DNA from: a virus
Direction: 5' to 3' (one strand)
IMG/VR virus record: IMGVR_UViG_3300031963_000105
DNA length: 64,000 bases
The position numbers were made by a program, and so were the translations under genes. The notes beneath the pieces are model-generated. The model saw only the letters and a list, made by a program, of their open reading frames with translations, made no database searches and was not told the DNA's origin. Numbering within the stretch: position 1 is the first letter of the stretch; each line of letters opens with the position of its first letter. This document shows positions 53,649 through 56,802 of this stretch, one piece after another.

Positions 53649-54053
53649 ATGAAAGAAAAATTAATAACAGCTTACATGGATGTCGCTGAAAGATTTTCAC
53701 AGTTATCAACTGCCACTAGGTTAAAGGTTGGAGCAGTGGTTGTAAAAGATAATAGAATAATATCTATAGGATACAATGGTACACCAGAAGGATGGTGTAA
53801 TAAATGTGAAGATGATTCTAATAAAACTAAACCAGAGGTTATCCACGCAGAGATGAATTGTATAAATAAATTAGCAAAATCAAACGAAAGCGGAAAAGAT
53901 TCTGTTATGTTCATAACTCATTCTCCATGTATGGAATGTGCTAAATCTATTTACGGATCTGGTATAAAAACAGTTTTCTATAAAATTCTATATAGAGATT
54001 TAAGTGGAATAGAGTTTTTAAAAAAGTGTGGAGTAGAAGTTTTTAAAATTTAA
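53649..54053 (+). CDS. cd: dCMP deaminase
   Basis: RLKVGAVVVKDNRIISIGYNG, IHAEMN, THSPCMECAKSI; probable start 53649. Confidence 0.93.
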   Translation: MKEKLITAYMDVAERFSQLSTATRLKVGAVVVKDNRIISIGYNGTPEGWCNKCEDDSNKTKPEVIHAEMNCINKLAKSNESGKDSVMFITHSPCMECAKSIYGSGIKTVFYKILYRDLSGIEFLKKCGVEVFKI

Positions 54054-54060
54054 AAAAGTC

Positions 54061-54089
54061 TCTGGTGCTCAAGCAAAGACTATCGAAAC
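54061..54089 (-). repeat. 3' arm of long-range inverted repeat flanking hsp20
   Basis: mRNA sense GTTTCGATAGTCTTTGCTTGAGCACCAGA is complementary to 54600-54626. Confidence 0.85.
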
Positions 54090-54569
54090 TTAGTCAACCT
54101 TAATATCTATGTTATAGACCTCCGGTTGTTTTACGGGAACGGTTACTCGCAATAAACCATCCACGTATGTTGATGTGATGTTTTTAGCATCTGTGTTTTC
54201 ATTCAAGACAAAAGAAAGACTTCCTTTACGCTTGCTTATTCCTTTTTTGACATAAGAAACGTTCTTATCATCATCCTTGTCTTCTTTAAGAACATCAATA
54301 TTCAAATGTCCATCTCGGACTTTGACATCAATGTTATTTTTTCCAACACCGGCTAGAGCAACTTCTACAATGTATTTGTCTGCTCCTCCGTCAGCATTTT
54401 TAATTGCTTTAATGTTGTATGGGTAAACAGCATTCTTTACTTCAAATGCCTTCTCCCAATCGTTTATTACGGTGTTTAGCCAATCATCATTGAACAGAGC
54501 GGGTAATTGGCTGAATACCCTTTCTGTGGACGAATAATGTCCGGGTGTGTATGTTGTTATGTTTGTCAT
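54090..54569 (-). CDS. hsp20: Small heat-shock protein Hsp20
   Basis: Alpha-crystallin motifs YPYNI, VEVALAG, YVKKGISKR, YVDGLLRVTVP; canonical SD AAGGAG. Confidence 0.95.
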   Translation of the reverse strand: MTNITTYTPGHYSSTERVFSQLPALFNDDWLNTVINDWEKAFEVKNAVYPYNIKAIKNADGGADKYIVEVALAGVGKNNIDVKVRDGHLNIDVLKEDKDDDKNVSYVKKGISKRKGSLSFVLNENTDAKNITSTYVDGLLRVTVPVKQPEVYNIDIKVD

Positions 54570-54600
54570 ATATTTTCTCCTTTTTTAAGCGAGGTATATG
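54567..54600 (-). promoter_or_regulatory. ROSE-like RNA thermometer hairpin over the hsp20 SD and AUG
   Basis: CAUAUA-C-CUC(G)CUU-AAAA-AAGGAG-AAAA-UAUAUG; contains the UCGCU anti-SD motif. Confidence 0.65.
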
Positions 54601-54626
54601 TTTGTCTAGCCTTTGTGAGCACCAGA
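54600..54626 (-). repeat. 5' arm of long-range inverted repeat flanking hsp20
   Basis: mRNA sense TCTGGTGCTCACAAAGGCTAGACAAAC, just downstream of a late-type TAAGTA box (54635-54640). Confidence 0.85.
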
Positions 54627-54701
54627 ACTATACATACTTATCATTTTTTTATTAAAAATACAACAAGATTTTTTTATGTATTATATGTAAATATATACTA
54701 G

Positions 54702-55148
54702 ATGACGACCTTTAAAAATTTTACACAAAAAAGACCTATAGTATTAATCATAAATAATACAAAAAGTGGTTATTCAGAAAAACTTAAGTATTTTTTTAAA
54801 GGTAAATCAAACATTAAAATATTTGATGATAATTTTAATATGGAAAAAATATTAAAATTAAACCCGAGATTAGTTCTAGATATAAATGAAAGTAATAAAA
54901 CGAGAGGTATTTATATAAACTGTTCAAACTCTATAATAGAAAAAATCAAATACATAATTTCTAATAATATAGAAATTCCATTTATAGGAAAACATCAAGT
55001 AAATAAAAATAAAAAATTAGAACTTCAATTATTTAAAACTGGAACTCCTTACTGCTATATAGAGTTTCCAACGTCCGGGTTTGAATATAAAACTTTACTT
55101 AAAAATACATTGATTATTTTAAACCGTATAGTAAACTATTTTAAATAA
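54702..55148 (+). CDS. Hypothetical protein (MTTFKNF CTS-like start)
   Basis: GTAAATA box at 54687-54693; alpha/beta pattern without clear catalytic motifs. Confidence 0.6.
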   Translation: MTTFKNFTQKRPIVLIINNTKSGYSEKLKYFFKGKSNIKIFDDNFNMEKILKLNPRLVLDINESNKTRGIYINCSNSIIEKIKYIISNNIEIPFIGKHQVNKNKKLELQLFKTGTPYCYIEFPTSGFEYKTLLKNTLIILNRIVNYFK

Positions 55149-56008
55149 TGGTAGAACTTAAATCATTAAGAAAAATATGTAAAATTCTTTTCGGTGAAAA
55201 TCAAGATACCTTTTTACCAGAACTTGAACATAATTGGAATAATTTAAATTTTAACGGACAAATAATAAAATCTGTAAATTGGTATTGCAACGATGAAAAA
55301 GAAGAATACAACAAAGAAGGAAATAAAGAATACAAACCTTCAGATGTATTATACGAGTTAAATGAATATGGTTATAGAACTTCCGAAGAAACAAACGATT
55401 TTTTTAATGAAAATTTAATAGCTTGTTTTGGTTGTAGTAACACTTTTGGTTATGGTTTACCTTGGAACGAAACTTGGAGTGCTAAATTAAACGATAAATT
55501 GGGAGTAGATTGGTGTGTTAAAAATTATGGAGTGTGTGGGGCTTCCATGGATACAATTAGTAGATTGATATACAATTATACAATATCACACAAACCAAAA
55601 ATAATATGTTGTTTTTTTCCCGAAATTTTTAGAATGGAATTATTTTCTGATGATAAACTATCAAATTTTACTCCAGTATATTCAAAGCATCAAAATAAAA
55701 AAATTTATCAAAATTACATAAACATCATAAATGAAGACTTTGGCGTTTATATGTTTGTTAAAAATTTTAAATTCATAGAAACAATATGTAAATTACATGA
55801 TATAAAATTATACTGGTCTACTTGGTCGAAAACAATTTTTAATTTCAACGAAGAAACAACAAAAAAATTCTTAAACGAAAACGGAATTAAAGTCGTTGAA
55901 CACGACACGCATTTTTGTAATCAACCTAAAGCTAGAGATAATGGACACTTCGGAAGAGAAGTAAATGAAAAAATAGCTCAGGGTTTTTGCGATGTGATTT
56001 TATCGTAA
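55148..56008 (+). CDS. SGNH-hydrolase-like protein (paralogue A)
   Basis: Block I FGCSNTFG, block II NYGVCGAS, block V RDNGHFG. Confidence 0.75.
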   Translation: MVELKSLRKICKILFGENQDTFLPELEHNWNNLNFNGQIIKSVNWYCNDEKEEYNKEGNKEYKPSDVLYELNEYGYRTSEETNDFFNENLIACFGCSNTFGYGLPWNETWSAKLNDKLGVDWCVKNYGVCGASMDTISRLIYNYTISHKPKIICCFFPEIFRMELFSDDKLSNFTPVYSKHQNKKIYQNYINIINEDFGVYMFVKNFKFIETICKLHDIKLYWSTWSKTIFNFNEETTKKFLNENGIKVVEHDTHFCNQPKARDNGHFGREVNEKIAQGFCDVILS

Positions 56009-56802
56009 AATTCTTTTGCTATATTTTTACTTGTATTTGGTCCGAAGTGTATTCCATCTAAACCATAATCTATATTAGATTCTAAATGACTTAAGTCTAC
56101 GTAATTATTAATATTTAAATGTCTTTCTATGAAAGATTTATCTAAACAATATATATTTCTAGCCCATGTAGACCAATAAAATTTTATATTTTTGTTGTCG
56201 CATAAATTTTGTATAAACTTAAAATTTTTTATAAAGTTATAAATTCCATTATCTTCAGTTGAAATTTTTTTATAAGCCATATAAAATTCATGTTGTATAA
56301 AAGAATATGTTTTTAATATCTCTTTGTTTTCAGTTTTTCTAAAATTTTTTAAATCCGAATTAACATCAAAAAATTCCATTCTAAAAAAATCTGGAAATAA
56401 ACAACATATAATTTTTGGTTTTTTATTTGAAACAAAATTATATATTAATCTAGATATGTTATCATTTGAACCTCCGGGTACTCCATAATTTTTAACGCAC
56501 CATTCATCACCTATAAATTTGTTTAACAAAAAAGGCCAAGTATCCTTATACTCAATAGCCATACCAAAGGTATTACTACATCCAAAACACCCTATCAAAT
56601 TTTCATTAAAAAAATTATTTGTTTCTTCGGAAGTCCTATAACCATATTCATTTACTTCATATTTTATAGTATCTAATTTATCAATATCATTTGTTTTAGT
56701 ATGTATGTTTTTACTATCGAAAGAATCTATATCCCATATAGTATCGTGTAATTGAGAATTAAATGTTTTACTTAAAAAATAATTTTTTAAACTATTTGTC
56801 AT
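55978..56802 (-). CDS. SGNH-hydrolase-like protein (paralogue B)
   Basis: FGCSNTFG, NYGVPGGS, LDGIHFG; clear paralogue of 55148-56008. Confidence 0.75.
   Translation of the reverse strand: MTNSLKNYFLSKTFNSQLHDTIWDIDSFDSKNIHTKTNDIDKLDTIKYEVNEYGYRTSEETNNFFNENLIGCFGCSNTFGMAIEYKDTWPFLLNKFIGDEWCVKNYGVPGGSNDNISRLIYNFVSNKKPKIICCLFPDFFRMEFFDVNSDLKNFRKTENKEILKTYSFIQHEFYMAYKKISTEDNGIYNFIKNFKFIQNLCDNKNIKFYWSTWARNIYCLDKSFIERHLNINNYVDLSHLESNIDYGLDGIHFGPNTSKNIAKEFYDKITSQKP

Follow-up and report, generated by a model that had tools for sequence, protein, structure and literature searches.

The hsp20 gene of a freshwater T4-like phage is bracketed by two complementary arms that close the two ends of its predicted mRNA into a long helix. 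This helix is under selection, since it recurs with compensatory changes in distantly related phages. A sister clade carries a local hairpin at each end of the same gene instead. We assign a probability of roughly one half to the reading that the helix is an end-to-end clamp, in which a single helix would stand in for the two end hairpins and shield the mRNA at either end.

The window and its hsp20 gene

The stretch of DNA analyzed here, referred to as the window, comprises 64,000 nt of IMG/VR record IMGVR_UViG_3300031963_000105 and is given as one strand, 5' to 3'. It encodes a tail sheath, a large terminase, a family-B DNA polymerase, a DnaB-like helicase, a ribonucleotide reductase, and a dCMP deaminase, which together identify the phage as a T4-like myovirus. 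A nucleotide query of the phage collection returned no matches. Among named Hsp20 proteins, the nearest are those of cyanomyoviruses and of Pelagibacter phage Mosig, at approximately 30% identity to that of the window. Read from 54642 to 54052, the minus strand presents in order a late box, five bases, the 5' arm, the leader, hsp20, the 3' arm, and a run of six U residues, and the features discussed below are as follows.

54635 to 54642, minus strand: late-promoter-like box GATAAGTA, a putative promoter recognized by family comparison
54600 to 54629, minus strand: 5' arm of the long-range helix, 30 nt (RNAduplex, full-length fold, covariation)
54627 to 54616, minus strand: 5' arm, outer 12 bp (RNAduplex)
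54615 to 54607, minus strand: 5' arm, middle 9 bp (RNAduplex)
54603 to 54600, minus strand: 5' arm, inner 4 bp (RNAduplex)
54577 to 54593, minus strand: small Shine-Dalgarno hairpin, CUCGCUU (54593 to 54587) with AAGGAG (54582 to 54577), with a bulged G (minimum-energy fold)
54090 to 54569, minus strand: hsp20 coding sequence, 159 aa, Hsp20/alpha-crystallin (PF00011, E = 9.4e-16, residues 63 to 157)
54057 to 54089, minus strand: 3' arm of the long-range helix, 33 nt, immediately 3' of the stop codon (RNAduplex, fold, covariation)
54052 to 54080, minus strand: alternative terminator-like local hairpin with U6 (GUCUUUG, 9-nt loop, CAGAGAC), which competes with the long-range helix

Elsewhere in the window, two overlapping convergent paralogues (55148 to 56008, plus strand, and 55978 to 56802, minus strand) share the motif NEYGYRTSEETN.FFNENLI.CFGCSNTFG and create an inverted repeat of 100 nt that is 88% complementary. 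Neither paralogue has a match in PHROG or Pfam.

A long helix closes the ends of the predicted mRNA

The sequence UCUGGUGCUCA at 54626 to 54616 is the exact reverse complement of UGAGCACCAGA at 54071 to 54061, a perfect 11-nt inverted repeat, and this 11-mer occurs in the 64-kb window at these two sites only, in inverted orientation. Leader and trailer together form a duplex of 27 bp and -34.7 kcal/mol (RNAduplex). Its outer segment of 12 bp, one of them a G-U pair, is separated by a 2-nt bulge (CU, 54073 to 54072) from a middle helix of 9 bp that also contains one G-U pair, followed by a 3x3 loop and 4 bp adjoining the stop codon. On the far side, a 1-nt bulge is followed by two more outer pairs, out to A54629/U54057, and a U6 run extends beyond the helix from 54057 to 54052. 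The earlier note had described this structure as arms at 54626 to 54600 and 54089 to 54061 that form 11 bp, a bulge, 9 bp, a 3x3 loop, and 4 bp, with a U-rich tract beyond. Our analysis recovers the arm positions, the pairing pattern, and the tract, and it adds three outer pairs. When the 591-nt RNA is folded in full, its ends are closed in both the minimum-energy and the centroid structures.

The same note had argued that so good a match is unlikely to be a chance event, and the two comparisons that we made agree. The best of 30 shuffled flanks reached -25.1 kcal/mol against -34.7 kcal/mol for the real ones (z = -4.7), and a chance origin of the hsp20 bracket is unlikely. The bracket is also unique among the 84 ORFs of the window: all were scored alike, and the runner-up reached only -17.9 kcal/mol, with a median of -8.6 kcal/mol.

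The helix is conserved and covaries among relatives

Scans of IMG/VR and metagenomes produced 45 hsp20 loci, mostly from freshwater, of which 37 are distinct. The long-range helix is kept in 29 distinct metagenomic loci, namely the window phage and 28 relatives, at 38 to 96% protein identity to the window and with differing arm sequences. Among these 29 loci, the helix measures 15 to 32 bp and -22.8 to -47.1 kcal/mol (RNAduplex), with 22 to 32 bp in 26 of them, 15 bp in L016, and 17 bp in L034 and L035. The 5' arms have clade-specific cores (UCUGGUGCUCA, CCCUAGUGUUC, UUUUAGUGCUUAA, UUUUGGUGCUUGA, and AUCUGGUGCUAAA), each of which lies opposite its own complement. The geometry around the helix is likewise conserved, as the 3' arm begins 0 to 11 nt past the stop codon in all long-range loci and the Shine-Dalgarno sequence and AUG lie 28 to 50 nt from the helix. 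Full-length folds close the ends in all 29 loci with a probability of approximately 1.00, and the hairpins that either arm could form by itself are far weaker, at 0 to -11.5 kcal/mol.

We aligned the complete mRNAs with MAFFT (alignment A3, 700 columns), and RNAalifold recovers the closing helix from this alignment unguided. Six of the 11 predicted pairs vary on both sides, for example, as CG 21, UA 7, and GC 1 at one pair and as GC 16 and AU 10 at another. In the outer 12-bp helix, 94% of the cells are canonical, compared to 34 to 49% when the 3' partner column is slid by 1 to 3 positions, and at least two strict Watson-Crick types are found at 8 of the 12 pairs. Whatever the tree, this variation requires at least 10 double substitutions, and parsimony on the Hsp20 tree counts 22 type switches. 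An alignment-free test, in which arms were swapped among loci, gave a mean of -34.9 kcal/mol for cognate arms and -22.1 kcal/mol for non-cognate arms, a gap of approximately 13 kcal/mol, and the cognate partner ranks first or second in 19 of the 29 sequences. A sequence-only alignment of artificially joined arms recovered the outer helix alone because indels scramble the inner part, and the covariation of the inner helix therefore rests on the swap test and not on column counts. The covariation among homologues that the earlier note had proposed to look for is thus present, with compensatory changes in 29 distinct loci.

The hsp20 coding sequence contains a structure of its own. A 14-bp hairpin at 54471 to 54519 of the window (minus strand; core AGCCAAUU ... 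GAUUGGCU, 21-nt loop) shows covariation across the 29 loci (AU 15 and GC 9; GC 18 and AU 11; CG 17 and UA 9), and here Gln-Leu codons co-vary with the variable residue preceding Trp.

Local hairpins replace the helix in a sister clade

On the Hsp20 tree, the eight loci without the long-range helix fall together in a single nested clade (SH-aLRT 99), which amounts to a single change. Their homologous 5' sequence (GUCCUAGUGCAC..., AUCAGUGCUC...) forms a local hairpin directly after the late box, all eight carry a canonical G+C hairpin with a U-tract 3' of the gene, and the clade is without the Shine-Dalgarno sequence as well as without the helix. Pelagibacter phage Mosig, P-SSM7, and S-RSM4 are laid out as a late box, a 5'-terminal hairpin, CU(C/U)GCUU...AAGGAG, hsp20, and a terminator. 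The hairpins that take the place of the helix in the sister clade and in these outgroups measure 10 to 14 bp.

Terminators are distributed differently among the long-range loci: in 21 of the 29, the 130 nt past the stop codon contain nothing terminator-like. Another four contain no more than a weak hairpin within the 3' arm, and a separate terminator is present only in the divergent L033, L034, and L035. The local hairpin within the 3' arm of the window has a 7- to 8-bp stem and -7.1 kcal/mol, compared to -34.7 kcal/mol for the duplex; with its 9-nt loop, it was seen by a separate scan, while a terminator tool with a loop limit of 8 reported none. Judged from sequence comparison, a paired 5' terminus and a structured 3' terminus would be common to all of the hsp20 phages compared, and in the window's clade the single long-range helix would supply both end structures. 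The replacement of one architecture by the other suggests that the two may be equal in function.

Two further observations concern individual loci. A conserved G+C-rich stretch of approximately 75 nt (UUUUGCGACACCUGCCGAUUGCCC...) occupies the interval between the stop codon and a weak terminator in three loci of the local-hairpin clade (approximately L022:852-940, L026:1674-1760, and L027:1394-1480), in which ARAGORN found no tRNA and Rfam no family. Also, 5' of hsp20 on a freshwater phage contig (L026:463-633, plus strand), Rfam reports STnc540 at 44.5 bits against a gathering score of 38. STnc540 is an enterobacterial sRNA family.

A late-promoter-like box and a predicted Shine-Dalgarno hairpin flank the 5' arm

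Of 35 loci compared, almost all carry a late box, with the family consensus GATAAATA or GATAATTA, ahead of the hsp20 leader, and ATAAATA-type motifs are approximately 6-fold enriched 5' of genes in the window. The box usually ends 4 to 6 nt short of the first paired base, which bears out the earlier placement of the 5' arm just downstream of a late box, and T4-type late transcripts begin about as far downstream of TATAAATA. The 5' arm thus appears to begin at the predicted transcription start. The motif TATAAATA is quoted as the T4-type late promoter in PMC3037559, where Miller et al. 2003 is cited for it. A scan of the window for late boxes shows that the hsp20 leader is unusually long. The variant GATAA[ATG]TA often begins only 13 to 17 nt ahead of the ATG, which implies very short or absent leaders, and the structured hsp20 leader of approximately 60 nt is an exception among the short late leaders of the window.

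The small Shine-Dalgarno hairpin sits between the clamp helix and the start codon and pairs across an A-rich loop in a ROSE-like manner. Its predicted stability falls from -8.0 kcal/mol at 10 C to -3.4 kcal/mol at 37 C and to zero at 65 C. All 29 long-range loci keep the motif, apart from slight variation (alignment A3), and a variant is also found in the leaders of Pelagibacter phage Mosig (L049), P-SSM7 (L051), and S-RSM4 (L050). An Rfam search of the locus and related leaders at a permissive threshold gave chance-level matches only and no known family. The hairpin may thus be an element common to the hsp20 leaders of many T4-like phages that has so far gone undescribed.

Metatranscriptomes contain hsp20 without its flanks

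Contigs from three metatranscriptomes of three studies cover 54112 to 54615 and none of the 1.3 kb of flanking sequence, and one DNA run covers nearly the whole of the same stretch. Since these RNA contigs contain hsp20 without its flanks, the gene appears to be expressed separately from its neighbors. The contigs break off at 54615 and 54112, with the outer 5' arm and the 3' arm outside their coverage, and both arms would be carried by one RNA. One RNA contig ends at 54615, which is the border of the outer helix. In the three lake metatranscriptomes in which hsp20 was assembled, neither the neighboring dCMP deaminase gene nor the ORF at 54702 is present. A contig end at 54112 or 54113 is common to two runs and could be due to strain variation or to an RNA end.

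The helix most likely acts at the RNA level

The composition of the duplexes does not by itself separate RNA from DNA. They are mostly Watson-Crick, with 37 G-U pairs in 767 bp compared to four A-C 1x1 mismatches, and only 13 of the 29 loci have a sense duplex that is more stable than its antisense counterpart. This strand asymmetry is not significant (P = 0.12), and G-U content alone therefore cannot decide between the two levels. Context favors RNA: the 5' arm follows the late box, and the 3' arm the stop codon, at short distances kept among loci; loci with the window's neighbors have hsp20 in one orientation; and RNA contigs contain the gene without its flanks. In addition, the bulge that separates the outer helix from the middle one persists across clades, and homogenization of DNA repeats would erase it. 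We conclude that the helix most likely acts as RNA.

The hsp20 gene shows cassette-like behavior. Near-identical cassettes (95 to 96% amino acid identity) occur in three unrelated contexts, namely, the window, L001, and L006. The neighbors of hsp20 in L001 (96%; L001:1-3477) have no detectable homology to those of the window, and L006 (95%; L006:1251-2756) places the gene within a phage tRNA cluster, after Glu and Gly and before Ser, Ser, Tyr, and Thr. In both, homology to the window breaks exactly at the outer arm ends. The first tRNA-Ser of L006 starts 5 nt past the 3' arm, and cleavage by RNase P would therefore put the 3' terminus of the mRNA at the base of the helix. The conserved arms may serve as homology handles for exchange among phages, and phage accessory genes can in this way move between genomes as RNA-structured cassettes.

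These cassettes, together with an antisense duplex almost as stable as the sense duplex, are what a DNA-level element would predict, whether the arms were recombination handles, the ends of a mobile or invertible cassette, or paired protein sites, with RNA pairing as a by-product. We nevertheless regard this reading as very remote, as the arms are positioned with respect to the stop codon and the predicted start of transcription, the bulges and the 37 G-U pairs persist, and the same 5' sequence folds locally in the sister clade. An invertible segment, which the earlier note had already considered less likely, was rejected: L009, L010, and L043 share the window's neighbors and have hsp20 in the identical orientation, a Pfam scan of the four adjacent ORFs detects no domain of a recombinase, and the DNA contigs contain no joints, although rare variants could escape. 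A PeSL shuffling cassette was rejected as well. PeSLs of T4-like phages are repeated motifs of an early promoter and a stem-loop, in direct orientation and at many sites (PMC4122927), whereas the arm 11-mer is inverted and confined to its two sites. An integron-cassette reading was also considered and rejected.

A proposed end-to-end clamp and its rivals

A paired 5' end blocks 5'-end-dependent decay via RppH and RNase E (reviewed in PMC3997798). On the reading that we favor, the end-to-end clamp, hsp20 would be transcribed from its own late-type promoter into a monocistronic mRNA of approximately 575 nt, the first bases of which would pair with those just past the stop codon to form a terminal helix of 15 to 32 bp. 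This would leave no single-stranded 5' end for host 5'-end-dependent decay (RppH with RNase E, or RNase J), and it would present 3' exonucleases with a stable stop to which read-through or processed tails could be trimmed back. A single helix would then do the job of the 5'-terminal stem-loop and the terminator hairpin in related phages. The strong G+C-rich outer 12 bp would remain closed during translation, and the weaker inner part beside the stop codon could be opened by terminating ribosomes. Against the clamp, a helix between ends approximately 540 nt apart has to compete with co-transcriptional local folds and with ribosomes. The pairing itself, its retention and compensatory change among relatives, and the placement of the helix were established in silico, and where the transcript begins and ends and how the helix affects its stability are inferred. 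Among the functions that the earlier note had listed, stabilization is thus the one we favor, on account of the conservation of the helix and the replacement of helix by hairpins. A heat-gated clamp or thermosensor, also on that list, is unlikely and was rejected, because folding predictions retain the long-range pairing at temperatures as high as 75 C.

The main rival to the clamp is processing by RNase III, in which the host enzyme would cut the helix, like the stems around 16S and 23S rRNA, either to release a defined mRNA from a read-through transcript or, as for icaR, to initiate decay. An RNase III substrate spans some two helical turns of double-stranded RNA, at 20 bp or more. Most of the helices resemble such substrates in their length of 22 to 32 bp and in being interrupted near the middle by a bulge or an internal loop (PMC6582327, rRNA stems; PMC3868564, icaR), longer precursors are plausible given that most loci have no terminator and one lies in a tRNA cluster, and the RNA contig that ends at the border of the outer helix would also fit. 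We still consider such processing unlikely. Three loci have just 15 to 17 bp (L016, L034, and L035), the 10- to 14-bp hairpins that substitute for the helix in the sister clade and outgroups are too short for RNase III, a 5' arm located at the predicted transcription start needs no 5' trimming, and the matching 3' contig ends (54112 and 54113) are inconsistent with a staggered cut. The variable length of the helix, from 15 to 32 bp, suggests a better fit to a clamp than to a measured cleavage site. The absence of canonical terminators from most long-range loci, compared to their presence in all local-hairpin loci, could alternatively point to a long-range terminator, in which the nascent 3' arm would pair with the waiting 5' arm and, with the U residues that follow, release RNA polymerase. 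The earlier note had raised long-range termination, and its observation of a U-rich run stands for the window, where the run directly follows the helix, as it does in L001 and L043. The U-tract is not conserved across loci, however; most have no U-run (e.g., L006, L009, L024, and L013), and L033, L034, and L035 combine the helix with a separate terminator, so that we give this reading very little weight.

Two other readings concern translation. The stop codon is brought near the Shine-Dalgarno sequence and AUG by the conserved geometry (0 to 11 nt and 28 to 50 nt from the helix, respectively), and terminating ribosomes might re-initiate on the same mRNA, a reading that the unusually long hsp20 leader also favors. 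We know of no bacterial precedent for closed-loop re-initiation, and the sister clade has lost the helix and the Shine-Dalgarno sequence alike; this reading seems improbable to us. A functional closed-loop bacterial mRNA in the broader sense, be it through ribosome recycling or through sealing of the ends into a circular mRNA by a phage RNA ligase, would be a similarly improbable outcome. If the circular version were true, the mRNA ends would be presented to the phage RNA ligase like a broken stem-loop. The hsp20 mRNA might instead be latent, with a closed form that is stable and poorly translated until slow 3' trimming or heat opens it. The end-to-end helix does adjoin the CUCGCUU hairpin that sequesters the Shine-Dalgarno sequence, and the logic would be that of hok tac/fbi (PMC9841398). 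Against this, no alternative partner was seen for the freed 5' arm, and the Shine-Dalgarno hairpin is also present in outgroup phages without the long-range helix, and latency seems improbable as well.

Comparison with known systems

5'-Terminal stem-loops, such as that of the ompA leader, and the 3' hairpins of terminators protect mRNAs (reviewed in PMC3997798). This is the layout of hsp20 in the sister clade and outgroups, whereas the window's clade has one long-range helix instead of two local hairpins. Phages with a local 5' hairpin and a terminator around the same gene thus constitute a natural control, and the contrast makes it testable whether one long-range helix can replace both end-protecting hairpins. 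The helix also offers a compact, portable design for stabilizing a message.

Long helices that bracket an RNA are best known from rRNA processing stalks, in which arms hundreds to thousands of nucleotides apart form an interrupted helix of approximately 25 bp around a functional RNA (PMC6582327). The stalks resemble the hsp20 helix in this respect but lie inside a long precursor and are cleaved, while the 5' arm of hsp20 seems to be the transcript start. In Staphylococcus aureus icaR, another mRNA with 5'-3' UTR pairing, an anti-Shine-Dalgarno motif (UCCCC) pairs with the ribosome-binding site, blocks translation, and recruits RNase III, which leads to decay (PMC3868564); the Shine-Dalgarno sequence of hsp20, in contrast, is outside the long-range helix. 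Pairing between the 3' and 5' UTRs of Bacillus subtilis hbs protects the leader from RNase Y (PMC5737220). That helix has 14 bp, is internal to the leader, overlaps the RNase Y site, and is not conserved in close relatives (PMC7821165), unlike the 15- to 32-bp hsp20 helix, which involves the extreme ends of the mRNA and persists in loci with as little as 38% protein identity.

Bacterial mRNAs with pairing between their own 5' and 3' UTRs are few, and the known cases are mostly poorly conserved or short (review, PMC7821165). The 5'-3' UTR pairing of hld/RNAIII, for instance, has 7 bp. The hsp20 helix adds a phage example that is longer (15 to 32 bp), terminal, and backed by deep comparative support. 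The hok tac/fbi interaction is described in PMC9841398, in a passage citing Thisted 1995 and Gultyaev 1997, as a long-distance 5'UTR-3'UTR helix that is strongly stabilizing for the full-length mRNA and supported by covariation. The hok mRNA of the plasmid R1 hok/sok family shares with hsp20 an end-closing helix, covariation across the family, and an adjacent element that sequesters the Shine-Dalgarno sequence. It differs in being a toxin mRNA in which closure silences translation until 3' processing, while hsp20 has a phage chaperone as its cargo and a longer helix, and no refolding pathway was found for it. By analogy, the hsp20 helix would work most like hok tac/fbi or hbs, from which it differs in its cargo, its length, its terminal position, and its phage context.
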